The notes beneath the pieces were generated by a model. It was given only the letters and a program-made list of their open reading frames with translations, was not told where the DNA came from and searched no databases. Below, one piece after another: positions 1-13,303 of a stretch of 13,303 bases of DNA. The position numbers were made by a program, and so were the translations under genes. The stretch comes from a virus (lineage: Duplodnaviria; Heunggongvirae; Uroviricota; Caudoviricetes): positions 1 to 13,303 of IMG/VR virus record IMGVR_UViG_648276647_000015. One strand, given 5' to 3'. How positions within the stretch are numbered: position 1 is the stretch's first letter; each line of letters begins with the position of its first letter.

Positions 1-246
1 AATGTTCTTGTTTTCGTTAAACGGTAACACCTCATTCAGCCCGGCATTTCTGAAATCAATGTGCAACTGCTCCAGTGCTGCTTCTTTATCAGCACCCGTT
101 AATTCGAGATAATCCCAGAGGCTGGCGCATAAACCACAGTTTCGCGAAAATATTCCGCCTGGATTTGCTCCGTTTTTCAGCCACAAATCATAAGTAATAT
201 AAAACCCGCAAAGCTGTTGTCTGATATTTTCTTTGATTTCTTGCAT
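1..246 (-). CDS. Hypothetical phage protein, 3-prime truncated by window edge (at least 82 aa; N-term MQEIKENIRQQLCGFYITYDLW...)
   Basis: ATG at 246..244 on minus strand, open frame of 82 codons running to position 1 with no stop; same orientation as the upstream operon. Not in the ORF track because it lacks a stop in the window. Function not recognised. Confidence 0.45.
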   Translation of the reverse strand, partial: MQEIKENIRQQLCGFYITYDLWLKNGANPGGIFSRNCGLCASLWDYLELTGADKEAALEQLHIDFRNAGLNEVLPFNENKNI

Positions 247-343
247 TATTTATTACCGCCCTTTCGGGCGGCCTCCTGATTATTTGAGGGTGCAGAAATC
301 CCTCCGGTTAAGGATTAATTTTTATGTTCTGTGCCAAATTTAA

Positions 344-763
344 TTATTCAGTTCGGGCTTTTGTCGCCCTGCGTATCCGCGCTTTCACGTTGCGCTCAAT
401 CTGAATTAGCTTTTCTATATTTTTTCGCCTTTCCCGTTCCTCCTGGCGCAATTGTTTTACATCATCTGCCAGCCAGGTTTCTCTTTTCGCCACAGAGAGC
501 ATCCAGTCAAATGGTTCCACAACCGCACCGCAGATTTTACAGCGGACCTGACGCTCTTTTTCGTCAACCCGGACAGAGGCGTGATGGCAATATGGTCTTT
601 CCGATGGCTCATAAAGAAAATTAACCTGATTACGTGGGTCATCCTCTTTTACCGGAAATAAAACAATATTACTTAACTCATCTTCTGGTTTTATTTCCAC
701 ATTACCCCCCCCTTTGATGTAAATGCCAGCAACACGCAGTACCTGATAGTCAATCCCGCTCAC
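344..763 (-). CDS. Hypothetical phage protein with Cys/His zinc-ribbon-like motif (C-H-H ... CxxC), 139 aa
   Basis: ORF 344..763; GTG start at 763..761 preceded by AAGAGG Shine-Dalgarno about 7 nt upstream; overlaps the 3-prime end of the upstream methyltransferase ORF by 14 nt (coupled). Motif PYCHHASVRVDEKERQVRCKICG. Confidence 0.55.
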   Translation of the reverse strand: MSGIDYQVLRVAGIYIKGGGNVEIKPEDELSNIVLFPVKEDDPRNQVNFLYEPSERPYCHHASVRVDEKERQVRCKICGAVVEPFDWMLSVAKRETWLADDVKQLRQEERERRKNIEKLIQIERNVKARIRRATKARTE

Positions 764-1244
764 TGGTTGCCTCTTTCACAAAAATAATCCAATGTGTTTT
801 ATCGTTCTTGCCGGTACGCTGGCTGATGATTGGTTTCGCGTCGGTTAGTGCCAATATCTGGCGAACAGGTATTTGCGTTTCATTCCATTTAAAAATCAGA
901 ACGCCGTGTGGCCACAACACACGAAAGGCTTCTTTAAATCCCTGCCGCAAATCATCACGCCAGGTATCTTTATTCAGCCGTCCATATTTCTTTCCCATCC
1001 AGGCATTATCACCAATACGCTCAAGATGCGGAGGGTCGAATACAACAACCGGAAACGATGCGTCTGCAAATGGTAATGCACGAAAATCTGCTATCAGGTC
1101 AGGGCTAATAATCAGGCGTCGTCCATCACACAATGTGTGCTCTTCCTTTCTGATATCGCTAAATATCGCCCGGTCGTCATTCTTATCGAACCAGAACATG
1201 CGACTACCACAGCACATATCAAGAATGGTTGCCGGTGCACTCAC
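750..1244 (-). CDS. Small SAM-dependent methyltransferase, amino-methyltransferase type (DPPH motif), 164 aa
   Basis: Rossmann-type motifs in canonical order: motif I ILDMCCGSRMF (aa 7-17), acidic motif II AIFSDI (about aa 26-31), motif IV VVVFDPPH (aa 66-73). GTG start at 1244..1242 with AGGAGG 7 nt upstream; start overlaps upstream stop as GTGA. Confidence 0.65.
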   Translation of the reverse strand: MSAPATILDMCCGSRMFWFDKNDDRAIFSDIRKEEHTLCDGRRLIISPDLIADFRALPFADASFPVVVFDPPHLERIGDNAWMGKKYGRLNKDTWRDDLRQGFKEAFRVLWPHGVLIFKWNETQIPVRQILALTDAKPIISQRTGKNDKTHWIIFVKEATSERD

Positions 1245-1663
1245 TGCGCTACCTCCTGAAAATTACCCTGATAGAAAGCCAGTACACGCTGCATAGCTTC
1301 GCTCTTCCGGCACTCGCGACAGATTATATTCAGGCGCCTGTCGTAGCGGCGTATTTCTCCGTCTGGTAATGACCAGATAAGGTCAGGATCAACCACAGAT
1401 GGTTTCTTCAGATTTGCCCTTGAGAGTTTTTTACGGGCGTTTTGCCAGTCCTTGCGCGCCTGTTCAGAGGGGAATAACCCGTAACCAGAGTTGTATACAT
1501 CGCCACTGGCAACCAGCTCTCTGGCAAGAACGCTCATCAGATATCTTGTCGCACCTGTCTTGGCTTCCAGTTGCCGTAACGTCTCGCGACCGCTCAGACG
1601 TACAAGTTCAACAACCTGCCCTTTAATTTTTTCCCGCTCTTCTGGTGTAAATACTTTTGCCAT
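1241..1663 (-). CDS. Hypothetical phage protein, 141 aa (MAKVFTPEEREKIKGQVVELVRL...)
   Basis: ORF track extends to 1777, but the ATG at 1663..1661 is preceded by GGAGG about 5 nt upstream and lies 14 nt after the stop of the preceding gene; N-terminal extension lacks an RBS. Function not recognised. Confidence 0.55.
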   Translation of the reverse strand: MAKVFTPEEREKIKGQVVELVRLSGRETLRQLEAKTGATRYLMSVLARELVASGDVYNSGYGLFPSEQARKDWQNARKKLSRANLKKPSVVDPDLIWSLPDGEIRRYDRRLNIICRECRKSEAMQRVLAFYQGNFQEVAQ

Positions 1664-1677
1664 AGCGCCTCCGGCAA

Positions 1678-2439
1678 TCACTTTTCCGACACAATACGAC
1701 TGGAGGAATCGACAATCAGTCGAACAATATCCCGGTGCTTGTTCAGCTCCCGCAGCGCGGCGCAGACACGCTCCCACTTCTGGACATGATTTTTCGCCCG
1801 ACGCAGTTCGCGGTTTGCCAGATGCAGCGATGGCAAAATCAAATCATCAGCTCGCGTTGCAGTAAACGATGGCAGCGACTGCACAATGTCCGCCACAGTT
1901 TCTGTTTTAATATCTTCCTGTGTTGCTGCTTCCTGTACTGGTAACGCAACACCTGCTGGCTGAGGAAAGGCTTTACCATCATTTTCCGTTACCGATGCAG
2001 CTTTCGGCTCTACTGGTAAATTATCGCCCGGTATGCAGTAACGAAATTTACCGCCCTGATTTACGCGAATCAGACGACCTTTGCTGATTGCCATTGCCAG
2101 CGTTGAAGCCACTTTGCGTGATGTGGTACCGAACAATGTAGCCAGTTCATCCGCCGTTTGTGGTCCGCGTTGTTCAATCGTCGCGGTTAAATCGCACTCT
2201 GAGATTTTCGCTACTGTTGCCGTGGTGGTTTCTTCCGGCAGTTCTGCCTGCGCTGGCTGTTCCTGCTGAACGTTGTTATCAGCCACACGCCAGGTGTACG
2301 CGCTTTTATCAACGAAACCAGCCTTTTTCAGTTCCCATAGTTCGTTCAGCACTTCTTCACGACTGATATCAAGTCGCGCAGCAAGTTCTATGGATGTGGC
2401 CTTTCCCATTGCTTTCAGTGCGTCAAAAACAGTCTCCAT
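1678..2439 (-). CDS. Hypothetical phage protein with two predicted winged-helix-like segments separated by acidic/Q-rich linkers (DUF1627-like), 254 aa
   Basis: ORF track gives 1678..2490; the ATG at 2439..2437 has a strong RBS (GGAGGA, 8-nt spacer) and does not overlap the upstream DnaC-like gene. HTH-like segments [28 protein letters not shown] and [31 protein letters not shown] assignment from memory. Confidence 0.6.
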
Positions 2440-2461
2440 TAAAATTTCCTCCCGGTAAAAA

Positions 2462-3208
2462 TCACTTCGCAATTCCTGGCTGGACGACATTCGGACGCCA
2501 GCTCTCCCAGTTAAAATTCACCCATCGCCCGCCGTTCATGGTCATGCGATCCATAATCCTCTCGCCGAGCAATGTTTTCATGGCCTCATAGTTCAGGTTT
2601 GTCAGCATCCCCACGCTGCGCATCGACGCTGTCCGGCGATCAACAATCTGGTGCAGCACCACCTGCTCGTTTTTTGTCTCGCGCTGAATGCCAATTTCAT
2701 CAAGAACCAGCAGATCCACTTCGCACAGCTCCCGCAAAAATTTTTCGCCTGACTGCCCGTCGTCATAGCTGGCGTGCAGGGCGCTCATAACATCAGCCAC
2801 GGTAACCACAATCACTGTCTGACCGTCTTTCAGCAGGCGATTCCCGATAGCTGCCGCTAAGTGATTCTTCCCGGTACCAGGTTTTCCGCTGAACGCAAAA
2901 TTTGTACACCCGGTCATCAGTTCATCGGTGATGGATTTCGCCTGGCTTAACGCGTATCGCTGGCCGTCGTTCTGCACCTGGTAATTCGCAAACGAGCATT
3001 TACGGTGCAACGGCTGGATGCCAGAGCGATTCAGAATTTTTTCCACCCGCAACTGACGATTCAGGCGGTTGATCTCCTCGCAACGTTTCTGGCCTTCAGC
3101 AAGTTGCCACTCACGCCACTCCGCAACCGTTCTGAATGGGGCGGTTACATGTGGTGGGGTCAGTCTGCGGATACGCTCCAGAACGCCGCCTGTCGCAATA
3201 TTTTTCAT
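2462..3208 (-). CDS. ydaV: DnaC-like replicative helicase loader (AAA+ ATPase), 248 aa
   Basis: Walker A-like [17 protein letters not shown] and Walker B LLVLDEIG; length and position immediately downstream of the initiator gene match Rac YdaV / phage P-type loader. ATG at 3208 with RBS; stop of upstream gene 7 nt away. Confidence 0.8.
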
Positions 3209-3214
3209 GGTCTG

Positions 3215-4003
3215 TTACCCCCTGAAGCCTGGCGGGATCGCACTGTCCGGCAACGAGACGGTGTTAACCTGTCGGAGCAACGTCTCAGGCCGAACACCTT
3301 TCGGCGCGAACAGGCCCTGGTATTCATTGGCGATACTGTGTCGAATCACCTGCTCAGGTGTAAAACCCTGCTGGCGGAATTTTTCCAGCTCCCGTATCGC
3401 CCCGTTAGCGCCCTGCTCCGTTCGAATCGGTTTTCGCAATGCCTGCCTGAACCGGACCCACTCATGCCAGAGTGTTTCCGGCAACCAATCGGGCAGCTCA
3501 ATAGCCTCCGGCTCAAATTTTTTAGACGCTCGTTTTTGGCGAGGGGGATTTAGGGGGAGATCAGTATTTATATCTTCCTCTTCCTCTTCCTCTGGTAACG
3601 CTTTTTGATCCGTTTGTGTAACGCTGCCAGCGTTACCTTTTCGTTTCAGTTCGCGTATTTTTGTAACTCGCTCGTTTGTAACCGCCCGTTTTTTAGAGCT
3701 TTTCCCGTTATGACGTTCAAAGTTAGGTAGAGAAAGCCCACCGTCATTTTCGACCAGCCATCCAACCTGAATTAACGCATCAGCAAAACCAGCCATAAAA
3801 GTGATGCGATCTATTGCACTTTTTGTAACGCCGCGAGCGTTACAATCTGCATTACCGTCTATCATTTGTTGATCCGCCCATGCCCAGAAGCGAATAACCT
3901 TCCCTAATGCGGCATCTGGATCAATATTCAGAATCTCAGCAAGCCTGAATATTTCCGGCTTATCCGGCGTAATAACCTCGAGCTTTATCCAGTTTGAAGC
4001 CAT
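3215..4003 (-). CDS. ydaU: Putative phage replication initiation protein (YdaU / DUF1376-like), 262 aa, acidic EEEEEED linker
   Basis: Position upstream of the DnaC-like loader and downstream of the cro/cII-like genes; contains repeated palindromic DNA motifs (listed separately) as origins within lambdoid initiator genes do. ATG at 4003 with AAGGTG RBS. Family assignment from memory. Confidence 0.65.
   Translation of the reverse strand: MASNWIKLEVITPDKPEIFRLAEILNIDPDAALGKVIRFWAWADQQMIDGNADCNARGVTKSAIDRITFMAGFADALIQVGWLVENDGGLSLPNFERHNGKSSKKRAVTNERVTKIRELKRKGNAGSVTQTDQKALPEEEEEEDINTDLPLNPPRQKRASKKFEPEAIELPDWLPETLWHEWVRFRQALRKPIRTEQGANGAIRELEKFRQQGFTPEQVIRHSIANEYQGLFAPKGVRPETLLRQVNTVSLPDSAIPPGFRG
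3617..3637. repeat. 21-bp palindrome TGTAACGC-TGCCA-GCGTTACc (copy 1 of 3), inside the initiator gene
   Basis: Read directly; half-site-like TGTAAC also at 3662-3667 and 3677-3682 in the same orientation. Confidence 0.8.
3824..3844. repeat. 21-bp perfect palindrome TGTAACGC-CGCGA-GCGTTACA (copy 2 of 3), inside the initiator gene
   Basis: Read directly from sequence. Confidence 0.8.
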
Positions 4004-4015
4004 TTGTTTTCACCT

Positions 4016-4036
4016 TGTAACGCTCGCAGCGTTACA
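4016..4036. repeat. 21-bp perfect palindrome TGTAACGC-TCGCA-GCGTTACA (copy 3 of 3), in the ydaT-ydaU intergenic region directly upstream of the initiator RBS
   Basis: Read directly from sequence; sits 13 bp upstream of the initiator start codon. Confidence 0.8.
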
Positions 4037-4080
4037 TTTAACTGATACCGAACAAAACAATCCGGCACGATCAATTTCAA

Positions 4081-4503
4081 TCAATGCACTACGACAGAAT
4101 CGCCGGGCGACCCACCACCGCTGAAATGTGCTTTCCGGTAAACGGCCTGGACTGCATCATCATGCGCATCAATTGCCGTACTCAACGCTTCCTGCGCCGC
4201 CAGTAATGCACGGCGCTCCAGGGTATCGAAGATGCAGAGTCGGTGACGCAGCTCGCGCGGAAGAATTGCCAGAACCGCAGGGATGAGTTTCTGAATTTTT
4301 TCCCTTTGCGCTTTCGTTTCACCTTTCAACCAACGGTGATAGATATTCTGCTGATTGTTCCAGTCCTTGCCTGGTACAAGGGGCAATTCGCCGCCCCCCT
4401 GGCGCAGATATTCTTCAGTAATTGCGTTAGCGACCCACGCCTGCCCTTTTTCGGCTGCCAGGGCTAACAACACTGATTCGATATGCTCATGCCTGATTTT
4501 CAT
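4081..4503 (-). CDS. ydaT: CII-like regulator YdaT-like protein, 140 aa
   Basis: Sequence (MKIRHEHIESVLLALAAEKGQAWVANAITEEYLRQGGGELPLVPGKDW...) and 140-aa length match my recollection of Rac YdaT; ATG overlaps the stop of the upstream Cro-like gene as ATGA; AGGAG RBS 9 nt upstream. Confidence 0.8.
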   Translation of the reverse strand: MKIRHEHIESVLLALAAEKGQAWVANAITEEYLRQGGGELPLVPGKDWNNQQNIYHRWLKGETKAQREKIQKLIPAVLAILPRELRHRLCIFDTLERRALLAAQEALSTAIDAHDDAVQAVYRKAHFSGGGSPGDSVVVH

Positions 4504-4742
4504 GAATCAACCGCTCCTATGCTGTTTTCGCTATGCTTACCGTCTGGGGGGAATACATCGTCAAGTCCACAATGAGCGCCAAGCCGATTAAGGGTAGAAA
4601 CAATTTTTCTGCACTCCTCTAGTCCAGGGGTACGAAAATTTGCTTCGTAATTTGCCAGTCGGCTTTGTATCCACCCTAACTGAACAGCAAGTTGTCTTTG
4701 AGACAGCCCAAGCTGTTTTCGATATGTTGAAATTTTGTTCAT
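4500..4742 (-). CDS. ydaS: Cro-like HTH (XRE-family) regulator, YdaS-like, 80 aa
   Basis: HTH signature QRQLAVQLGWIQSRLANYE; divergent from the repressor gene across an operator region; GGAGG RBS with 6-nt spacer; first gene of the minus-strand operon. Confidence 0.8.
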   Translation of the reverse strand: MNKISTYRKQLGLSQRQLAVQLGWIQSRLANYEANFRTPGLEECRKIVSTLNRLGAHCGLDDVFPPDGKHSENSIGAVDS

Positions 4743-4838
4743 TGAAAACCTCCGATGACAATTTTAAACACATCTTGTGTTATATGGTCAAGCTGTTTTG
4801 TGTTTTATGTAAATCACGATTCGTGATACAAGGATGCA
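4743..4838. promoter_or_regulatory. Divergent immunity control region (oR/pR-pRM-like) with two 15-bp palindromes: AACAC-ATCTT-GTGTT (4767-4781) and ATCAC-GATTC-GTGAT (4813-4827)
   Basis: Leftward promoter candidate: -35 TTGACC (plus-strand 4786-4791) and -10 TTTAAA/TAAAAT (about 4761-4766), with the first palindrome in the spacer. Second palindrome lies 12 bp upstream of the repressor ATG. Confidence 0.6.
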
Positions 4839-5258
4839 ATGGAAAAAGAAAACGAAAAAATTGCCGCTAGTAGGCTCAATGACAAAATTGCAATGCGTCT
4901 TAAAGAGCGCAGGCAGAAGCTTGGTTTATCTCAAGGAAAACTTGCTGAAATCTGCGGATGGACGCAATCGCGTATAGGTAACTATGAGGCGGGCAGCAGA
5001 AATGTTGGAGTGCATGACGCTGTCGTATTGGGAAAGGCACTTGGCATATCTCCTCCTGAGCTCCTCTTTGGAGAACAGGAATCTTCTGAATTGTGGTTAA
5101 ATGAATCCCAACGAAAACTTCTTGAGTTGTTTAACCAGCTACCGGGCTCAGAACAACAACGAATGATTGAGCTATTTGAAGTCCGGCTAAAAGAAATCGA
5201 TGAGTATGTAGAAAAATATTTGAGAGGCAGGCTTAAAGATAATCCCTCACCGGAGTAA
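4839..5258 (+). CDS. racR: Prophage repressor, RacR-like (XRE-family HTH, no S24 peptidase domain), 139 aa
   Basis: HTH signature QGKLAEICGWTQSRIGNYE in the N-terminal half; divergent to the cro-like gene; 139 aa is too short to include a LexA-type autocleavage domain. Symbol assigned by context with the YdaS/YdaT-like pair. Confidence 0.7.
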   Translation: MEKENEKIAASRLNDKIAMRLKERRQKLGLSQGKLAEICGWTQSRIGNYEAGSRNVGVHDAVVLGKALGISPPELLFGEQESSELWLNESQRKLLELFNQLPGSEQQRMIELFEVRLKEIDEYVEKYLRGRLKDNPSPE

Positions 5259-5288
5259 TGAGCTTGCTATCACAGTAATATGCCAATC

Positions 5289-5312
5289 AGCCCGCTATCA
5301 GCGGGCTTTTTT
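5289..5312 (+). terminator. Rho-independent terminator after the repressor gene
   Basis: Stem AGCCCGCT (5289-5296) / AGCGGGCT (5300-5307), 3-nt loop, followed by TTTTTT. Confidence 0.75.
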
Positions 5313-5341
5313 GTACCATCATCATATGACACTCACCACAA

Positions 5342-5384
5342 AACACATTTCGTGTTGACATAAGAAAACGCATTGTGTTTAATA
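5342..5384 (+). promoter_or_regulatory. pL-like early-left promoter with operator: AACAC-ATTTC-GTGTT (5342-5356) abutting -35 TTGACA (5355-5360), 17-bp spacer, -10 TTTAAT (5378-5383)
   Basis: Consensus -35 hexamer and 5/6 -10; the palindrome has the same 5+5+5 architecture as the one in the cro promoter spacer; an imperfect third copy AACGC-ATT-GTGTT at 5367-5379. Confidence 0.55.
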
Positions 5385-5564
5385 AGCATATCCAAACAAC
5401 GCCCCCACCAGAGAACGGCAGGACAATACCTCGAGTTATCCAGCCACTGAACAGGGCTAAGTAGCCAGCCTGAGGCATACGAACATGACGGCAGTTGTTG
5501 ATTGATACAAAGCGCAGTAGATAAAACGTTCCGCCACCCGGCGTTAAGGGGAAATGAGGTCAAC

Positions 5565-5717
5565 ATGGATACTATCGATCTTGGCAACAACGAATCTCTG
5601 GTATGTGGCGTGTTTCCCAACCAGGATGGAACGTTCACCGCCATGACTTATACCAAAAGCAAGACATTCAAAACTGAAACGGGCGCACGTCGCTGGCTTG
5701 CCAGAAATACTTGCTAA
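5565..5717 (+). CDS. Small conserved prophage protein, 50 aa (MDTIDLGNNESLVCGVFPNQDGTFTAMTYTKSKTFKTETGARRWLARNTC); possibly YdaF/YdaG-family
   Basis: ORF track entry 5502..5717 starts at a TTG; the internal ATG at 5565 has a GAGG RBS 4 nt upstream. Position between repressor and kilR matches small Rac ORFs; identity uncertain. Confidence 0.4.
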   Translation: MDTIDLGNNESLVCGVFPNQDGTFTAMTYTKSKTFKTETGARRWLARNTC

Positions 5718-5915
5718 TCCATTATTTGGATTAATTCAATATTCTCGCTGTAGGGGTATAGCAGAAACCACCAAAGCCCGGAGGTGGTGAAATAAAACCG
5801 GGCACAACACGAAGGCGCATTTCCGATATCCATAAAGAGTCGGTTTTGTCTGTTAAATTTAAATGGTGGGAGTGCGCCTCCGGTTGTAAATAACGACATT
5901 GCTGTGTGTAGTCTT

Positions 5916-5963
5916 GGCGGCATCAGTTTTTTCTTGAAGTTCGGCTGATGTCCGCCCCTTTTT
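5916..5963 (+). terminator. Terminator-like structure upstream of kilR: imperfect stem GGCGGCATCAG / CTGATGTCCGCC with 18-nt loop, followed by TTTTT
   Basis: Read from sequence; long loop and one bulge make it a weak call. Confidence 0.3.
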
Positions 5964-6128
5964 AAAGTGAATTTTGTGATGCGGTGAATGCGGCTAAGCG
6001 CACGCGGAACAGTTAAAAGCATCAGTGTTATGGGTGGATTATCCGGCGTTAATTGTTAACTGGTTAACGTCACCTGGAGGCACCAGGCACCGCATCAACA
6101 AAGTTCATTTGTAAAAATGGAGATAATT

Positions 6129-6350
6129 ATGATTGCACATCACTTCGGAACTGATGAAATACCACGTCAGTGTGTGACTCCTGGCGATTATGTTCTTCAT
6201 GAAGGCCGGACATATATTGCCTCGGCAAACAATATTAAAAAGCGAAAACTTTATATTCGTAACCTGACCACAAAAACATGCATTACTGACTGCATGATTA
6301 AAGTCTTCCTCGGTCGTGATGGTTTACCTGTAAAGGCGGAGTCATGGTGA
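6129..6350 (+). CDS. kilR: KilR-type FtsZ/cell-division inhibitor, 73 aa
   Basis: Sequence [46 protein letters not shown]... recalled as Rac KilR; ORF track starts at 6117 but ATG 6129 has GGAG 6 nt upstream and gives the expected 73 aa. Confidence 0.75.
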
Positions 6351-6520
6351 TGACTAAGAAAATAAAATGTGCTTACCACCTTTGCAATAAAGAAATTGAA
6401 GAAAGCAAAAGTATTAAAAGACCACTTCATTTCATGCGTGGAGTTATCCCAACGACGGAAATGAAAAAATATTGTAGTGAAAGTTGTGTCGAAAAAGACC
6501 AGATGGCACACGAACTTTAA
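6350..6520 (+). CDS. ydaE: YdaE-like small Cys/His-rich (zinc-binding) protein, 56 aa; absent from the ORF track
   Basis: ATG at 6350 overlaps the kilR stop (TGATG); translation [56 protein letters not shown]; position between kilR and racC as in Rac. Confidence 0.65.
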   Translation: MTKKIKCAYHLCNKEIEESKSIKRPLHFMRGVIPTTEMKKYCSESCVEKDQMAHEL

Positions 6521-6594
6521 TTAACTGACTATGCGAAACTGAATTTATGCCAGCAATGGCAGGGATTCGCTCAACCTTAATTAAGGAGAAAAAC

Positions 6595-6870
6595 ATGATT
6601 ACCAGTTATGAAGCCACTGTTGTAACTACTGATGACATTGTTCACGAGGTTAATCTGGAAGGAAAGCGTATTGGCTACGTGATTAAAACAGAAAATAAAG
6701 AAACCCCATTCACTGTGGTTGATATCGACGGTCCATCAGGCAACGTTAAAACACTTCACGAAGGTGTCAAAAAAATGTGCCTGGTGCATACCGGAAAGAA
6801 TCTGCCCGCAGAAAAAAAAGCCGAATTTCTGGCAACTCTAATTGCAATGAAATTAAAAGGTGAAATCTGA
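6595..6870 (+). CDS. racC: RacC-like protein, 91 aa
   Basis: MITSYEATVVTTDDIVHEVNLEGKRIGYVIKTENKETPF... recalled as Rac RacC; ATG 6595 has AAGGAG 7 nt upstream, whereas the ORF-track start 6547 has no RBS. Confidence 0.75.
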   Translation: MITSYEATVVTTDDIVHEVNLEGKRIGYVIKTENKETPFTVVDIDGPSGNVKTLHEGVKKMCLVHTGKNLPAEKKAEFLATLIAMKLKGEI

Positions 6871-6970
6871 AAGAAATAGCCTGCGTATGGCGCAGGCTAT
6901 GAACAGTGTGTATCCGGCAAGATCATTCACTGAACAAACGAATTTTAATCTGAGTTGAGGTTAAAAAACA

Positions 6971-8989
6971 ATGAGCACCGATAAACAAGTTTACCCACTG
7001 TATTACGAAGCAAAAAATGACAAAGTAAGAAAACGTCTCGGTATTAAGGGCGGTTTTTACTGGGCTGAAGCGAAAAAATTATCCATTGCCATCTCCCGTG
7101 GTGCTGTTGCGATTGACGATGCTGGCTACGATGAAGATGACTTCAAAAAACCTGTTCGCGTCAATTTGCCCGTTGTTGATGACCTCCCGCCAGAAGGCGT
7201 ATTTGATACGGAATTCTGCAACCGTTACGAAAAAGGCGGGGAAGATGGCATCACAATGGTATTTATCGCGCCCTCACCCTCTGCGCAGGGCAAACCAGCC
7301 AGCACTGACAACACCAATGTTAATGGCGAAGACATGACGGAGATTGAGGAGAATATGCTACTCCCGATTTCTGGCCAGGAGCTACCCATTCGCTGGCTTG
7401 CTCAACACGGCAGCGAAAAACCGGTAACGCACGTTTCACGCAACGAACTCCAGGCATTACACATTGCACGGGCTGAGGAACTACCAGCTGTTACTTCCCT
7501 GGCTGTTTCCCACAAAACCAGCCTGCTCGATCCGCTGGAAATTCGCGATCTCCACAAACTGGTGCGTGATACTGACAGAGTTTTCCCTAATCCAGGCAAT
7601 TCAAGCCTGGGGCTGATGACTGCTTTTTTCGAAGCATACATGGACGCAGACTACACCGATCGCGGTCTGCTGACAAAAGAGTGGATGAAAGGAAATCGTG
7701 TTTCACGCATCACGCGCACGGCTTCCGGCGCTAATGCTGGCGGCGGGAACCTCACCGATCGCGGCGAAGGTTTCGTTCACGATCTGACGTCACTGGCGCG
7801 CGACGTAGCCACTGGCGTACTGGCTCGTTCAATGGACGTGGACATTTATAACCTTCATCCGGCACACGCTAAACGTGTCGAGGAAATTATCGCTGAAAAT
7901 AAACCGCCCTTTTCTGTTTTCCGCGACAAATTCATCACCATGCCTGGCGGGCTGGATTATTCCCGCGCCATCGTGGTTGCGTCCGTAAAAGAAGCACCAA
8001 TTGGGATCGAGGTTATCCCCGCACACGTCACTGAATATCTGAACAAAGTACTGACTGAAACTGATCATGCCAACCCTGATCCGGAAATCGTGGATATTGC
8101 CTGCGGTCGTTCCTCTGCCCCGATGCCGCAGCGTGTAACAGAAGAAGAAAAACAGGATGATGAAGAAAAACTGCAACCATCTTGCGCAATGGCAGATGAA
8201 CAGGCAACGGCTGAAACAGTGGAACCGGATGCAACTGAACATCATCAGGACACGCAGCCGCTGGATGCTCAGTCACAGGTAAATTCGGTTGATGCGAAAT
8301 ATCTGAAACTGCGGGCAGAACTCCATGAAGCCCGGAAAAACATTCCGCCCAAAAATCCTGTCGATGCAGACAAATTACTGGCTGCCTCTCGCGGAGAATT
8401 TGTTGAAGGGATTAGCGACCCGAATGATCCGAAATGGGTTAAGGGGATCCAGACCCGCGACTCTGTGTACCAGAATCAGCCAGAAACGGAACATAACGAC
8501 CAGAAAGCGGAACAGAACGACCCAAATACGCAACAAAACGAGCCAGAAACGAAACAGCCTGAGCCAGTAGTGCAACAACAGGAAACGGAGAAAGTTTGCA
8601 CCGCCTGCGGTCAGTCTGGCGGGGATAACTGCCCTGACTGTGGTGCGGTGATGGGCGACGCAACATATCAGGAAACATTCGATGACGAGAATCAGGTTGA
8701 AGTTCGGGAAAATGAGCCGGAGAAAATGGAAGGCGCTGAACATCCACACAAGGAGAATGCTGGCAGCGATCCGCATCGCGATTGCAGTGATGAAACTGGC
8801 GAAGCAGCAGCTTCATCATTAGAAAAACTCGACTGGAAAAGACAAGTGGTGATTGCGGCGGTTTACGGTTTATGTGCGAATCCTGCAGGTATAGCCTCAG
8901 CGCCATTAATTCCGGGTATTGCAATGATGATCGCAAACAAACTTGAAAATTTTGGGGTAACAGATGATGAGCACATGCCCGATTTTTGA
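6971..8989 (+). CDS. Large protein resembling the N-terminal non-nuclease region of RecE (exonuclease VIII); no PD-(D/E)xK nuclease domain; C-terminal CxxC-x15-CxxC zinc ribbon and acidic/Q-rich segment; 672 aa
   Basis: Occupies the recE position downstream of racC; central region ([44 protein letters not shown]...) matches my recollection of RecE; ends 26 nt inside gam. Homology is recalled, not computed. Confidence 0.65.
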
Positions 8990-9263
8990 TCGCATTGAAG
9001 AGCTGGCATGGTCACGCCACTACCAGAAGATCGTTCGCGAAGAAAAAGAAACGGAACTGGCGGACGACCTGGAAAAAGGTCTGCCTCAGCACCTGTTTGA
9101 ATCGCTCTGCATCGACCATTTGCAACGCCACGGTGCCAGCAAACAGGCAATCAGTCGCGCATTTGATGACGATGTTGAATTTCAGGAACGTGTGGCGGAG
9201 CACATCCGGTACATGGTTGAAACCATTGCTCGTCACCAGGTTGATATTGATTCAGAGGTATAA
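8964..9263 (+). CDS. gam: Gam (RecBCD inhibitor), short-form length, 99 aa
   Basis: Residues from [14 protein letters not shown]...[22 protein letters not shown]...[32 protein letters not shown] are near-identical to lambda Gam as recalled; N-terminal 15 aa diverge. Confidence 0.9.
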
Positions 9264-9268
9264 AACGA

Positions 9269-10054
9269 ATGAGTACAGCACTTGCAACACTGGCCGGGAA
9301 GCTGGCTGAACGCGTCGGCATGGATTCTGTCGACCCGCAGGAACTGATCGCCACTCTTCGCCAGACGGCATTTAAAGGTAATGCCAGCGATGCGCAATTC
9401 ATCGCGCTGCTGATCGTCGCCAACCAGTACGGACTTAATCCGTGGACGAAAGAGATTTACGCCTTCCCTGATAAGCAGAACGGCATTGTTCCGGTGGTGG
9501 GCGTTGATGGCTGGTCCCGCATCATAAATGAAAACCAGCAGTTTGATGGCATGGACTTTGAGCAGGACGATGAATCATGTACATGCCGGATTTACCGCAA
9601 GGACCGTAATCATCCGATCTGCGTTACCGAGTGGATGGATGAGTGCCGTCGCGAACCATTCAAAACCCGAGAAGGCAAAGAAATCATCGGACCGTGGCAG
9701 TCGCATCCCAAACGGATGTTACGGCATAAAGCCATGATTCAGTGTGCCCGTCTGGCCTTCGGATTTGCTGGTATCTATGACAAGGATGAAGCCGAGCGCA
9801 TTGTCGAAAATACCGCACACACTGCAGAACATCAGCCGGAACGCGACATCACTCCGGTTAACGATGAAACCATGCAGGAGATTAACACTCTGCTGATCGC
9901 CCTGGATAAAACATGGGATGACGACTTATTGCCGCTCTGTTCCCAGATATTTCGCCGCGACATTCGTGCATTGTCAGAACTGAAACAGGACGAAGCAGTG
10001 AAAGCTCTTGGATTCCTGAAACAGAAAGCCGCAGAGCAGAAGGTGGCAATATGA
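9269..10054 (+). CDS. bet: Bet (Red-beta single-strand annealing protein), 261 aa
   Basis: [27 protein letters not shown]... essentially identical to lambda Bet over full length as recalled; same 261-aa length. Confidence 0.95.
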
Positions 10055-10731
10055 CATCGGACATTATCCTGCAGCGTACCGGGATCGACGTGAGAGCTAT
10101 CGTGCAGGGGGATGATGCGTGGCACAAATTACGGCTCGGCGTCATCACAGCTTCAGAAGTTCACAACGTGATAGCAAAACCCCGCTCTGGAAAGAAATGG
10201 CCTGACATGAAAATGTCCTACTTCCACACCCTGCTTGCCGAGGTTTGCACCGGTGTGGCTCCGGAAGTTAACGCTAAGGCGCTGGCCTGGGGAAAACAGT
10301 ACGAGAACGACGCCAGAACCCTGTTTGAGTTCACTTCCGGCGTGAATGTTACTGAATCCCCGATCATCTATCGCGACGAAAGTATGCGCACCGCCTGCTC
10401 TCCCGATGGTTTATGCAGTGATGGCAACGGCCTTGAGCTGAAATGCCCGTTTACCTCCCGGGATTTCATGAAGTTCCGGCTCGGTGGTTTCGAGGCCATA
10501 AAGTCGGCTTACATGGCCCAGGTGCAGTACAGCATGTGGGTGACGCGAAAAGATGCCTGGTATTTTGCCAACTATGACCCACGAATGAAGCGTGAAGGCC
10601 TGCATTATGTCGTGGTTGATCGGGATGAAAAGTACATGGCGAGTTTTGACGAGATGGTGCCAGAATTCATCGAAAAAATGGACGAGGCACTGGCTGAAAT
10701 TGGTTTTGTATTTGGGGAGCAATGGAAATGA
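10051..10731 (+). CDS. exo: Exo (Red-alpha 5-prime to 3-prime exonuclease), 226 aa
   Basis: [50 protein letters not shown]... near-identical to lambda Exo as recalled; ATG overlaps bet stop as ATGA, as in lambda. Confidence 0.95.
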
Positions 10732-10958
10732 GCGCAGCCACAAAGCTCACAGGAGAAAAACCAGTGCGATACACAAAAGTCAAACCATGCCCTTTTTGTG
10801 GTTGTCCATCAGTAACGGTGAAAGCCATTTCAGGATATTACCGCGCGAAGTGTAACGGATGCGAATCCCGAACCGGCTATGGTGGAAGTGAAAAAGAAGC
10901 ACTCGAACGATGGAATAAACGAACCACTGGAAATAATAATGGAGGTGTTCATGTATAA
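10728..10958 (+). CDS. Lar-like zinc-ribbon protein (putative restriction alleviation), 76 aa
   Basis: CPFCG ... CNGCE double CxxC motif and EALERWNKR segment resemble the Lar family; occupies the lar/ralR position after the recombinase genes. ATG 10728 overlaps the exo stop (ATGA) and has GGGGAG 8 nt upstream; ORF-track start 10722 is too close to the RBS. Confidence 0.5.
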
Positions 10959-11115
10959 AATTACCGCCACTATTGAAAAGGAAGGTGGCACTCCTACTAA
11001 CTGGACAAGGTACTCAAAAAACAAAGTTAACCAAATCGGAATGCGAAAAAATGCTCTCGGGGAAAAAAGAAGCAGGCGTTTCCAGAGAGCAGAAAGTAAA
11101 ACTGATAAATTTTAA
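10951..11115 (+). CDS. Small phage protein, 54 aa ([44 protein letters not shown]...), possibly YdaC/DUF1187-like
   Basis: ATG 10951 with GGAGG 5 nt upstream; ORF-track entry 10879..11115 is an N-terminal extension without an RBS. Identity uncertain. Confidence 0.4.
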   Translation: MYKITATIEKEGGTPTNWTRYSKNKVNQIGMRKNALGEKRSRRFQRAESKTDKF

Positions 11116-11246
11116 TTGCGAGAAACTTCTGTCCTCGTGAGTTGCATTATATCCAAATTAGAACTTCATAGCTGATTATTAAAAATCAATCACGTCCGCC
11201 AGTATTCTGTATATTTACTGGCGGTCATATCGTAAGAGGTATGGCA

Positions 11247-11528
11247 ATGAATCTTGTGACACTCAAAACGTGGGGGAAACTCAGATATCCGGATAATCCA
11301 CCATCAATATCAACGCTGAGACGATGGGCAAGGAATGGAAACATTTATCCTGCACCTGAACTACACGGGAGGAGTTACAGGGTGGTTCCGGAGGCTTTCT
11401 ATATCAACCCAAATAAGGTTGATACCGATATAACACACCATCAGCCTAATGGGCGACAAGGGAGAGACAGTCCGTTACTGGAGAAGTTAAAACATGCAGC
11501 GGAAAAAATACGATCCCAATTTGCCTAA
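11247..11528 (+). CDS. xis: Excisionase (Xis-like), about 93 aa
   Basis: Directly upstream of and overlapping int by 35 nt as in lambda; motif STLRRWARNGNIYPAPELHGRSYRVVPEA resembles excisionase/MerR-like winged helix. ATG 11247 has GAGG 7 nt upstream (ATG 11241 is 1 nt from the RBS). Confidence 0.6.
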   Translation: MNLVTLKTWGKLRYPDNPPSISTLRRWARNGNIYPAPELHGRSYRVVPEAFYINPNKVDTDITHHQPNGRQGRDSPLLEKLKHAAEKIRSQFA

Positions 11529-12570
11529 AAACTTAACATATCGAAGGAGGGACAAAGCATATTACTGGCGCAACCCTCTGACGAAAGAAGAATTTACACT
11601 AGGTAAAATTTCAAGAAGAGATGCAGTAGCGCAGGCAATTGAAGCAAATCATTATATATACAAAAACTACTCTCCTGCTGCCTTAATTGAAAAGCTTAAA
11701 GGGTTCGACTCATTTACTATGGCAGACTGGATTGAACGTTACAAAACGATTCTTATAAGGAGAAAAGTGTCCAGAAATACTTATAAAATTCGGGTAAATC
11801 AACTGGAGACAATAAAAGAAAAATTGGGAGGGATTTTACTGACAGAAATAACCACTCGCCATATTGCCGAGTTTCTTGATTTGTGGATTGAAGGAGGGAA
11901 AAACACAATGGCAGGATCAATGCGTTCTGTGTTGTCTGATATGTTTCGTGAGGCCATTGTTGAAGGACGTATATCTCAAAATCCAGTAACGCCAACAAGA
12001 GCACCGAAAATAGTAGTTACAAGAGAACGACTGAAACTAAAGACATACAACTGCATCAGGGAGGCAGCAGATCAACTTCCGGCATGGTTCCCATTAGCTA
12101 TGGATTTAGCCCTTGTAACAGGACAACGTCGCGAAGACATAACGAATATGCGGTTCAGTGATATTTATGATGATCGTCTCCACATCAGGCAAATTAAGAC
12201 AGGAATGATGATTGCTATCCCCCTGTCACTCAGCCTTCCTGTCGCTGGTCTACGGCTTGGTACAGTAGTTGAACAGTGCCGCCTGGTAAGCCGGGGAGAT
12301 TATCTAATCAGTGCCGGGATTAGAAAAAACAGCCCTGACGGCAGCATTCACCCGGATGGCCTGACAAAAAAATTTGTCGCAGCCAGAAAATTAACAGGTA
12401 TCCAGTTCAGTGAAAACCCACCAACTTTTCACGAGATCAGAAGTCTGGCTGGACGATTGTACAAAGAAACATGTGGAGAAGAATTTGCTCAGCGTCTACT
12501 TGGCCACACATCGGAGAAGACAACAAAAATGTATCTTGATGAGAGAGAAAAAACGTACTTACTGCTCTGA
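11494..12570 (+). CDS. int: Tyrosine site-specific integrase, lambda Int family, 358 aa
   Basis: Alignable to lambda Int as recalled, with conserved catalytic region ...[14 protein letters not shown]...[17 protein letters not shown] (R, H-x-x-R, H, Y); last phage gene before the host junction. Confidence 0.9.
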
Positions 12571-12617
12571 TTTTAACGTAAATGGATTGTTAAATGTATT
12601 TTGGTTGTGATATAACC

Positions 12618-12640
12618 AAAAAAGACCGGAATACAGAAAT
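12618..12640. repeat. Partial second copy of the sdsR 3-prime terminus (att-core-like): aaaaaagaccggaatacag vs aaaaaaagaccgaatacg at 12702-12719
   Basis: Direct repeat read from sequence; reverse complement GTATTCCGGTCTTTTTT matches the last 17 nt of sdsR with one inserted base. Confidence 0.6.
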
Positions 12641-12647
12641 TCGAGTA

Positions 12648-12667
12648 AATTTCGGGGAATTTCGGGG
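12648..12667. repeat. Perfect tandem direct repeat aatttcgggg x2
   Basis: Read directly; lies between the two sdsR 3-prime-end copies. Confidence 0.7.
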
Positions 12668-12701
12668 AGACGTTTGCAACTGATTGATTTTAAATACAAT
12701 T

Positions 12702-12804
12702 AAAAAAAGACCGAATACGATTCCTGTATTCGGTCCAGGGAAATGGCTCTTGGGAGAGAGCCGTGCGCTAAAAGTTGGCATTAATGCAGGCTTAGTTGCC
12801 TTGC
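12702..12804 (-). ncRNA. sdsR: SdsR (RyeB) small RNA, about 103 nt
   Basis: Reverse complement of 12702-12804 reads GCAAGGCAACTAAGCCTGCATTAATGCCAACTTTTAGCGCACGGCTCTCTCCCAAGAGCCATTTCCCTGGACCGAATACAGGAATCGTATTCGGTCTTTTTTT, matching my recollection of E. coli SdsR, including the terminator hairpin (10-bp arms, 7-nt loop) and U-run. A CTATTCT -10-like element sits just upstream. Confidence 0.7.
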
Positions 12805-12891
12805 TCTTTAAGAATAGATGACGACGCCAGGTTTTCCAGTTTGCGTGCAAAATGGTCAATAAAAAGCGTGGTGGTCATCAGCTTAAATATT

Positions 12892-12932
12892 AAAAACCGC
12901 CCGTTCTGGTGAAAGAACTGAGGCGGTTTTTT
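12892..12932. terminator. Bidirectional rho-independent terminator between the sRNA locus and yebY
   Basis: Arms AAAAACCGCC (12892-12901) / GGCGGTTTTT (12922-12931) with internal GTTCT/AGAAC pairing; U-runs on both strands. Confidence 0.7.
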
Positions 12933-12961
12933 ATTGGAAATCAAAAGGCTATTTTAGGTAA

Positions 12962-13303
12962 TTAACAGAGTTTTTCAGCTCGCTCTATAAACGGTGCCAG
13001 ACTCATTTTTTCGCCGGGATTGTTAGGATCATCAATCTGAATCACCGAAATGGGTTGGGTTTTAGTCTTCCCACTGGCAACTTCCTTTTGTGCGATATCG
13101 TTTAAAGGATACTGCACGAGGGTACTTGGGTTAATGACATACAAAGCATTACCCGGTCGGCAAGTCAGCATCACCTCTTCGCGATTAAACGCCCATTTGT
13201 CTTTACCCACTTCAAAACGGCTGACGGTAATCACCTGCGGTGCCGCCAGCGCAGCTGCAGAACTGGTGAGTAACAGAAACGCCAGAATACTTTTTTTCAT
13301 CAT
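12962..13303 (-). CDS. yebY: Small secreted protein YebY-like (DUF2511), 113 aa with N-terminal signal peptide
   Basis: Complete ORF ending at the window edge; [20 protein letters not shown] signal sequence; recalled as host YebY, which neighbours the sdsR/ryeA locus. Confidence 0.65.

Follow-up and report, generated by a model that had tools for sequence, protein, structure and literature searches.

The DNA analysed here (the window; 13,303 nucleotides, bases 1–13303 of scaffold GL883912.1 in the Escherichia coli assembly GCA_000176555.2) covers the early region of a Rac-like lambdoid prophage inserted beside the ryeA/ryeB small RNA (sRNA) locus and yebY. At the place that recE takes in Rac, the window carries an open reading frame (ORF) of 672 amino acids (6971–8989, plus strand) that consists of the N-terminal module of RecE (N-module), a linker and a C-terminal tail, and that is followed by lambda-type gam, bet and exo genes. 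On the evidence of domain searches and substitution patterns, the ORF is an intact and selected member of the RecE family that has no nuclease.

Upstream of this ORF, and like it on the plus strand, lie kilR (6129–6350; Pfam KilR), the zinc-finger gene ydaE (6344–6520; Pfam YdaE) and a racC-like gene (6547–6870); this Rac-type block (6117–6870) is 93.5–97.7% identical to Rac in nucleotide sequence. A GAGG ribosome-binding site is found about 10 nucleotides 5′ of the ATG of the 672-amino-acid ORF, and its product is identical to a 672-amino-acid protein recorded in GCA_000176555.2. The 3′ end of the ORF overlaps gam by 26 nucleotides (gam ATG at 8964), as had been described. The gam gene (8964–9263; PF06064, E 5.5e-56) encodes a GamS-like protein of 99 amino acids, or of 98 if the second ATG (8967) serves as the start, and is followed by bet (9269–10054; PF03837, TIGR01913), encoding a lambda Beta annealase of 261 amino acids, and exo (10051–10731; PF09588), encoding a lambda exonuclease of 226 amino acids, all three on the plus strand. 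The 3′ flank of this recombination slot is formed by the toxin gene ralR (10764–10958, plus strand; Pfam Lar_restr_allev), with the RalA antitoxin sRNA on the minus strand opposite the ralR/DUF1187 region (10957–11136; Rfam RF02694, 212 bits); this flank (10764–11136) is 92–97% identical to Rac by blastn, and xis and then int lie 3′ of ralR. With kilR–ydaE–racC upstream, ralR and RalA downstream and nucleotide identities of 93–98% to K-12 Rac and Rac-SA53, the early left region is of the Rac type.

A preliminary description, made from the sequence alone, had noted that the ORF in the recE position resembles the N-terminal region of RecE, and BLASTP agrees: residues 48–613 align with residues 40–587 of K-12 RecE (866 amino acids) at 81% identity, and there is no alignment past RecE residue 587. 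The sole Pfam match is to the non-catalytic Exonuc_VIII N-terminal family (PF06630; E 4.9e-36, residues 52–189). The PD-(D/E)xK/DUF3799 domain (PF12684) was not found in the protein by Pfam, as the same description had anticipated; the 1048-amino-acid RecE of Rac-SA53, used as a control, showed both domains. Because the PD-(D/E)xK domain (RecE 588–866) is absent, the 672-amino-acid protein cannot be exonuclease VIII. Against the NCBIfam equivalog NF007259 it scores 1187 bits, below the cut-off of 1269, and covers only positions 1–600 of 877. There is no adjacent recT partner, gam–bet–exo being found there instead.

The Gam, Bet and Exo family domains occur in that order, with gene order and overlaps as in lambda. 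Measured against lambda NC_001416, protein identity is 79.6% for Gam (lambda Gam residues 41–138), 96.2% for Bet and 96.5% for Exo, and the catalytic residues of lambda Exo (D119, E129 and K131) are kept at the expected positions. The window differs from lambda in the short form of its Gam, the N-terminus of which is divergent, and in having the tailed RecE-like gene upstream of gam where lambda has kil–cIII. The three genes had been taken to be near-lambda throughout; this stands for bet and exo and for the DNA at large (93.9% nucleotide identity over 9009–10742), but the part that joins the tail to gam is of a type of its own, since lambda-like DNA starts only at 9009 and the first 45 nucleotides of gam are part of the non-lambda segment. 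Similarity to RecE within residues 1–600, the lack of an intact nuclease domain and the high identity of the cassette to lambda, on any of which the earlier proposal could have failed, were thus all observed.

Exchange of the RecE nuclease domain and recT

The mosaic was mapped with an identity profile in steps of 100 nucleotides and by pairwise blastn against Rac (K-12 Rac and Rac-SA53) and lambda. Positions 5743–6978 are closest to Rac (93.5–97.7%). The following segment (6979–7308) has no nucleotide match to K-12 Rac or Rac-SA53 and represents an N-terminal variant that is found too in RecE proteins of 892 amino acids and is 72–86% identical to the Shiga toxin (Stx) phage type, after which 7309–8810 is closest to Rac recE (90–98%). 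The segment 8813–9008 matches neither Rac nor lambda; lambda is then closest up to 10742, and Rac from 10753 onward. The joint that an identity profile had been expected to reveal was found as two, the left one at 8810/8813 and the right one within 10743–10778. At the left joint, blastn alignments to Rac-SA53, K-12 Rac and a sister prophage (L104) end at 8810–8812, and in the DNA alignment this corresponds to RecE residue 587/588; the minimal RecE nuclease fragments of recombineering likewise start at residue 588. A RecE fragment called ‘E588’ is named in one published report (PMC11257833). The right joint is bounded by the 3′ end of exo and the 5′ part of ralR: lambda similarity stops at 10742, Rac resumes at 10753 and L104 resumes at 10779.

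The sister prophage L104 is of the same type, is integrated at the same yebY site and encodes RecT together with a RecE of 892 amino acids (P0013). It has in common with the window the repressor, YdaT, a DnaC-type loader, kilR, ydaE, racC, ralR, xis and int, and P0013, like other full RecE proteins of 892 amino acids, is 98% identical to the window ORF over residues 1–612. The two prophages are colinear over window positions 2186–5554 (97.7%), 5778–8810 (94.9%) and 10779–13303 (96.8%), and window positions 8811–10778 occupy the place of L104 6841–8551, which holds the RecE nuclease domain and recT. The swap of RecE nuclease and RecT for a lambda Red cassette, put forward in the preliminary description, is real because L104 is colinear except at this place, where it has the nuclease domain and recT. 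As judged by this comparison, the RecE nuclease domain and recT have been exchanged for a C-terminal hairpin and a lambda-type gam–bet–exo cassette in a Rac-like prophage at yebY. Mosaicism of this kind is ordinary in lambdoid prophages, and the arrangement is already present in public genomes under the wrong name.

The arrangement is not unique to the window. Of 5426 complete E. coli genomes, 106 (about 2%) contain the tail–gam junction, among them that of the O104:H4 strain 2011C-3493, and several Stx phages have it too. The whole Rac-like version occurs in 14 genomes, the best match being strain M8, which is 97.5% identical and has the same integration site. In Shigella phages 75/02 Stx and POCJ13, Escherichia phages phiSTEC1589-Stx1c and PhiR5_2 and the O104:H4 2011C-3493 prophage, the N-module, linker and tail likewise abut gam–bet–exo. 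The proteins of this group have 682–690 amino acids and are about 60% identical to that of the window, with a conserved tail; their N-module and tail are of another subtype (72–86% nucleotide identity where alignable), the backbone is that of an Stx phage, and the stop codon and the start of gam share the sequence ATGA, compared with an overlap of 26 nucleotides in the window. In the databases the gene is named “exodeoxyribonuclease VIII” or “RecE family exodeoxyribonuclease”, and in E. coli 13E0780 (L106, 2161–3991) the Prokaryotic Genome Annotation Pipeline (PGAP) calls its equivalent a pseudogene that is ‘frameshifted; incomplete; missing C-terminus’, a call that may stem in part from the expectation of a nuclease domain. 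A systematic annotation error is exposed here, in which nuclease-free proteins are named as exonucleases or as pseudogenes, including in Stx-converting phages and in the O104:H4 outbreak strain. In the literature we found no paper on nuclease-free RecE N-module proteins or mentioning PF06630. The new finding is that, on the evidence presented here, the N-terminal region of RecE is a self-standing, widely recombined module with a C-terminal mini-domain of its own.

The N-module, its linker and its endings

The folded N-module (residues 1–400; 6971–8170, plus strand) has a net charge of −19, that of the whole protein being −51. In an AlphaFold2 (AF2) model built on a 94-sequence alignment, the predicted local distance difference test score (pLDDT) exceeds 90 for most of residues 1–400, and disorder is predicted for residues 401–437 and 492–617. 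Alignments show that the core motifs of the module are present (SGAxAGGGNxTDR ... PGxLDYSRA ... DIACGR), with PGGLDYSRA lying within the folded part; a conserved Gly-rich loop is found at residues 252–264 (7724–7762, plus strand), and phrog_26058 matches residues 246–403 (E 6.7e-32). No structural relative of the folded N-module was found among solved structures or predicted viral structures, a search of PDB sequences with the ORF gave no match, no known RecBCD inhibitor showed sequence or fold similarity to the module, and no defence family in the PADLOC library was matched.

The linker (residues 401–619; 8171–8827, plus strand) is acidic and mostly disordered by AF2, with a conserved helix at residues 438–473. 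After this helix, at residues 475–489 (8393–8437, plus strand), is a conserved short motif, GE[FY]VxGISDPxDPKW, which 31 of 79 representatives of the family, from all architectures, possess. A second linker motif, LGGGVFS[VI][DE]xL, occurs in other members (21/79), again across architectures. Both look like docking peptides for a partner. A zinc ribbon with four cysteines follows at residues 543–557 (8597–8641, plus strand), and the module ends at a boundary marked by ...DCSDETGE (residues 604–611). K-12 RecE, which is encoded in the Rac prophage with RecT and takes the same position after kilR–ydaE–racC, has the same linker motifs and zinc ribbon; the window ORF differs from it by a helical hairpin of 43 amino acids in place of the nuclease domain and by the lack of recT.

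The last 55 or so residues of the ORF are absent from RecE but are conserved in the Stx-phage proteins of 682–690 amino acids that precede gam–bet–exo. They include the tail domain (residues 620–662; 8828–8956, plus strand), in which alignment and AF2 indicate a helix–loop–helix bearing the motif AAxxGxCANP; its A, A, G, N and P columns are invariant at the extreme C-terminus. In the family of tailed proteins, which comprises about 22 clusters with an overall identity of 23–45%, the consensus LTYrQQLTIAALQGLCANPA-x5-DDLPxMAxxLA is the best-conserved segment, and AF2 predicts for the tail alone two helices in a helix–loop–helix of about 40 amino acids (core pLDDT 77–90). The ORF is not merely truncated: the incoming segment adds a conserved C-terminal helical-hairpin domain in frame. 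The final 10 residues (8957–8986) are, by DNA alignment, the product of a 1-nucleotide deletion with respect to the Stx-phage type (GGAGG to GGGG), which has moved the stop codon 26 nucleotides into gam. The tail of the window is of a divergent subtype, matching phrog_26058 on its own with E 0.1, compared with 1e-13 to 1e-15 for consensus tails. It has no match in Pfam and only phrog_26058 among the PHROGs, and a profile of the tail alignment retrieved from a set of 5.8 billion proteins only short fragments and cyanobacterial mini-proteins, with no new architecture. Two other accounts of the tail were considered and set aside. A membrane anchor was rejected, since Kyte–Doolittle hydropathy is borderline only in the window subtype and is near-neutral in one member of the consensus type (P0213), and a derivation from lambda DNA upstream of gam (kil or the GamL N-terminus) was rejected as no similarity was found.

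The cyanobacterial proteins are stand-alone, consist of the tail-like part only (about 65 amino acids, containing ...FRQQLIIAAVQGLCANPTQDG...) and were found in metagenome-assembled genomes of Spirulina and relatives. Their loci (L019, 115–399; L020, 1525–1731; L021, 4583–4780) are chromosomal and do not look like phage. The idea that the mini-protein is a partner of ParA was dropped, as L021 has a ParA-like neighbour and L020 has no such gene next to it.

Selection was estimated from the ratio of non-synonymous to synonymous substitution rates (dN/dS) between the window gene and its Stx-phage homologues, a comparison in which dS is saturating. The ratio is 0.2–0.24 for the whole ORF and 0.06–0.10 in residues 1–100, residues 226–400 and the tail (tail 0.08–0.10), and it reaches 0.35–0.46 in the linker. 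The frame is unbroken in the window, M8 and each of three translated Stx-phage homologues (phiSTEC1589, 75/02 Stx and POCJ13), and the equivalent gene is an intact coding sequence in nearly all the tail–gam genomes listed.

When 1.84 billion cluster representatives were scanned in full with HMMER, only 237 relatives were returned, and the classification given here covers about 80 representatives of at least 450 amino acids. About 21 of these end in a PD-(D/E)xK nuclease, about 13 in a DEDD 3′–5′ exonuclease (PF16473) and about 22 in the tail, the rest having other helical C-termini. N-modules that are 95–98% identical bear a K-12-type nuclease (892 amino acids), a DEDD exonuclease (814 amino acids) or the tail (657–672 amino acids), and a more distant one (67% identity, residues 48–622) bears the divergent nuclease of Rac-SA53 (1048 amino acids). 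All architectures part right after ...DCSDETGE, at the same point of the linker. By these alignments, the N-module is a portable unit that, over about 75 sequence clusters, is joined at one boundary to at least five C-terminal ends. The fusions to DEDD domains, found for example in prophages at ompW, have N-modules 95–96% identical to that of the window and the same boundary, and differ in their Rv2179c-like DEDD C-terminus, which is followed directly by xis–int with no annealase and no gam. One such protein is P0118 (814 amino acids; L006–L008, 5001–7445), with an Rv2179c-like domain of PF16473, and 19 further IMG/VR loci have the same architecture.

Another ending is a C-terminal domain of about 270 amino acids in six representatives (P0132, P0154, P0185, P0194, P0205 and P0225), five of which give sub-threshold matches to Rad52_Rad22, at the signature helix and with a best E of 0.0025. 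It is probably a fused Rad52-like annealase, although a profile of the domain found no significant match among PDB sequences. The motif of this group is KKSLTDAxKKALSxLGFSADIxLGLYD. The domain exists alone as well, as the 242-amino-acid phrog_7838, whose label ‘exonuclease’ is probably the result of annotation transfer. In a single protein (P0123, 703 amino acids; one cluster at 50% identity) a RecT domain (PF03837, residues 528–678) follows the N-module in direct fusion, which may reflect a deletion or an error of assembly.

The neighbouring genes vary with the architecture, as detected with E. coli seed proteins. RecT comes next in all 34 loci in which the N-module ends in a PD-(D/E)xK nuclease, and xis–int comes next, with no annealase detected, where it ends in a DEDD exonuclease. 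Tailed forms of the E. coli/Shigella clade are followed by Gam(–Bet–Exo) in 25 of 25 loci. In tailed forms of other clades, namely eight genome loci of Lelliottia, Citrobacter, Buttiauxella and Cedecea, 80 IMG/VR contigs (the ones closest to a single reference protein) and two P0159-like loci, no Gam, Bet, Exo or RecT was found; here the gene is the only large one from the repressor to xis–int, and clustering of all neighbouring ORFs in these loci yielded no other candidate enzyme. These stand-alone proteins of the phrog_26058 type share with the window the core motifs, the AAxxGxCANP hairpin and an early left site after a ydaE-like gene and before xis–int, and differ in their low identity (23–45%), in the lack of gam, bet, exo or recT nearby and, for most, in the lack of the zinc ribbon. 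A ydaE-like zinc-finger gene (RPAP2_Rtr1-like) lies directly 5′ of the N-module gene in 57 of the 80 distant loci (L022–L101), with a median gap of 12 nucleotides. This neighbour, which in the window is ydaE (6344–6520), is common to Rac-type prophages and to very distant prophages with tailed forms, and suggests that the ydaE-like gene and the N-module gene are a functional pair.

Candidate roles of the N-module

The nuclease of RecE is a toroidal tetramer (PMC11611040). Its N-terminal part has no known function, but full-length RecE raises linear–linear recombination (PMC11611040, PMC11610958); full-length RecE underlies RecET direct cloning, while RecE 1–587 has no assigned function in recent reviews and primary papers. 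The preliminary description had argued for the N-terminal region as a unit under selection of its own, and this gains support from the several endings at one linker position, from purifying selection where no nuclease is present and from occurrence where there are no recombinase genes.

We propose that the N-module may be a non-catalytic, multivalent adaptor that acts at DNA ends, is multimerised or docked through the hairpin and works in trans beside Red; taken as a whole, this model is held tentatively and with rather less than even confidence. In this model the N-module would be a protein-binding component of linear DNA-end transactions, several copies of which must be presented together, a task of the tetrameric nuclease ring in canonical RecE. 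In the 672-amino-acid protein, multimerisation would be supplied by the hairpin, either by self-association or by docking on a partner. Helix–loop–helix units of about 40 amino acids are normally stable only with a partner or on self-association. The free-standing multivalent protein would act in trans beside Gam, Bet and Exo and lend Red what full-length RecE offers beyond its bare nuclease domain, an accessory activity seen in experiments as more linear–linear recombination. This activity should not be redundant with that of Gam, because the ORF is maintained by purifying selection alongside an intact gam. Every identified fused partner of the N-module is a DNA-end or annealing enzyme, which we count in favour of a link to recombination, and the net charge (−51 overall, −19 in the folded part) together with the conserved linker motifs points to partner binding rather than DNA binding by the N-module and linker.

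Several observations weigh against this proposal. The main difficulty for any model that needs a phage recombinase as partner is the stand-alone forms: the tailed proteins of Lelliottia, Citrobacter, Buttiauxella and Cedecea and of the 80 IMG/VR contigs have no Gam, Bet, Exo or RecT and no other large early left gene beside them. In these settings the protein cannot be an aid to a phage recombinase; it has to work by itself or on components of the host. The DEDD forms, too, are without an annealase. Oligomerisation or docking by the tail is something that we only infer, and the pLDDT of the tail is moderate (60–90 across AF2 models). An acidic fold without relatives gives no direct hint of an activity, and lambda itself works without such a protein.

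Another possibility, which we regard as doubtful, is that the N-module inhibits or decoys a host nuclease or guard of DNA ends (such as RecBCD, SbcCD or ExoI) and so protects linear phage DNA alone; the recombination enzymes fused or adjacent to it would then be add-ons, and the tail would only stabilise or target the inhibitor. A Gam-like activity within recE has long been proposed, and Gam is without effect on linear assembly by RecET while raising that by Red about 10-fold (bioRxiv 10.1101/2022.01.13.476211). The strong acidity of the protein, as in inhibitors that mimic DNA, would fit this explanation, as would an autonomous, host-directed role for the stand-alone tailed form, the only large early left gene in many prophages, and gam is missing from the Rac-type, DEDD-type and stand-alone forms. 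In the clade of the window, however, an intact gam always lies next to the gene, on which purifying selection nevertheless remains strong, so that simple redundancy with Gam is unlikely; the fold resembles no solved structure, and constructs for recombineering include Red-gamma even with full-length RecET.

A bolder idea, which we would likewise not expect to hold, is that the N-terminal two-thirds of RecE are an autonomous phage protein of unseen fold, with a role separate from exonuclease VIII, that uses its acidic domain and the peptides of its linker to bind and neutralise or hijack a host factor of DNA ends, the hairpin being a portable docking or oligomerisation domain. If this were so, the nuclease-free protein supplied in trans would enable lambda Red to perform the linear–linear ‘direct cloning’ for which full-length RecET is needed at present, and the proteins that stand alone in other Enterobacteriaceae would constitute a new class of host-takeover proteins among early phage products.

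It is unlikely, in our view, that the N-module has nothing to do with recombination and serves host takeover, replication, anti-defence or regulation, its fusions having arisen because the genes share an early left hot spot. The stand-alone forms without any recombinase, the tight linkage to a ydaE-like zinc-finger gene and not to any recombinase, the fold without known relatives and the lack of a match in the defence library would all be compatible with this. Position alone, however, would hardly explain why in-frame fusion has occurred four or five times independently, each time at the same boundary and each time to an enzyme of DNA ends or annealing, and in published experiments the N-terminal part alters the outcome of RecE recombination (PMC11611040, PMC11610958). 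That the ORF is a non-functional leftover of recE, its open frame and tail accidental after a Red cassette had replaced the 3′ half of recE and recT, is highly improbable: the pseudogene label in 13E0780, the last 10 residues derived from a 1-nucleotide deletion and the score under the equivalog cut-off may suggest it, but it is already contradicted by the selection and conservation data, namely the frame kept intact in the window, M8, the Stx-phage homologues and nearly all the tail–gam genomes listed, dN/dS near 0.1 in the folded parts and the tail, and a tail conserved at about 25% overall identity and even as a separate cyanobacterial protein of 65 amino acids.

Together with its relatives, the locus provides natural separation-of-function alleles, in which the N-module occurs with a 5′–3′ nuclease, with a 3′–5′ nuclease, with a probable annealase, with a hairpin beside Red, or alone. 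The role of the N-terminal region of RecE is therefore directly testable, with the constructs ready-made.

Other features of the window

The segment 5555–5777, between the repressor and kilR in the ydaF/ydaG region, could not be aligned to L104 and is a second small mosaic patch. Just past the stop codon of the racC-like gene is an 8-bp GC-rich stem-loop, AGCCTGCG-TATGG-CGCAGGCT, without a run of T (6874–6900); this region is 97–100% identical to Rac. At the other end, Rfam places the sRNA pair SraC/RyeA and SdsR/RyeB at 12698–12842, on both strands, between int and yebY, and the end of the prophage therefore adjoins the ryeA/ryeB locus.

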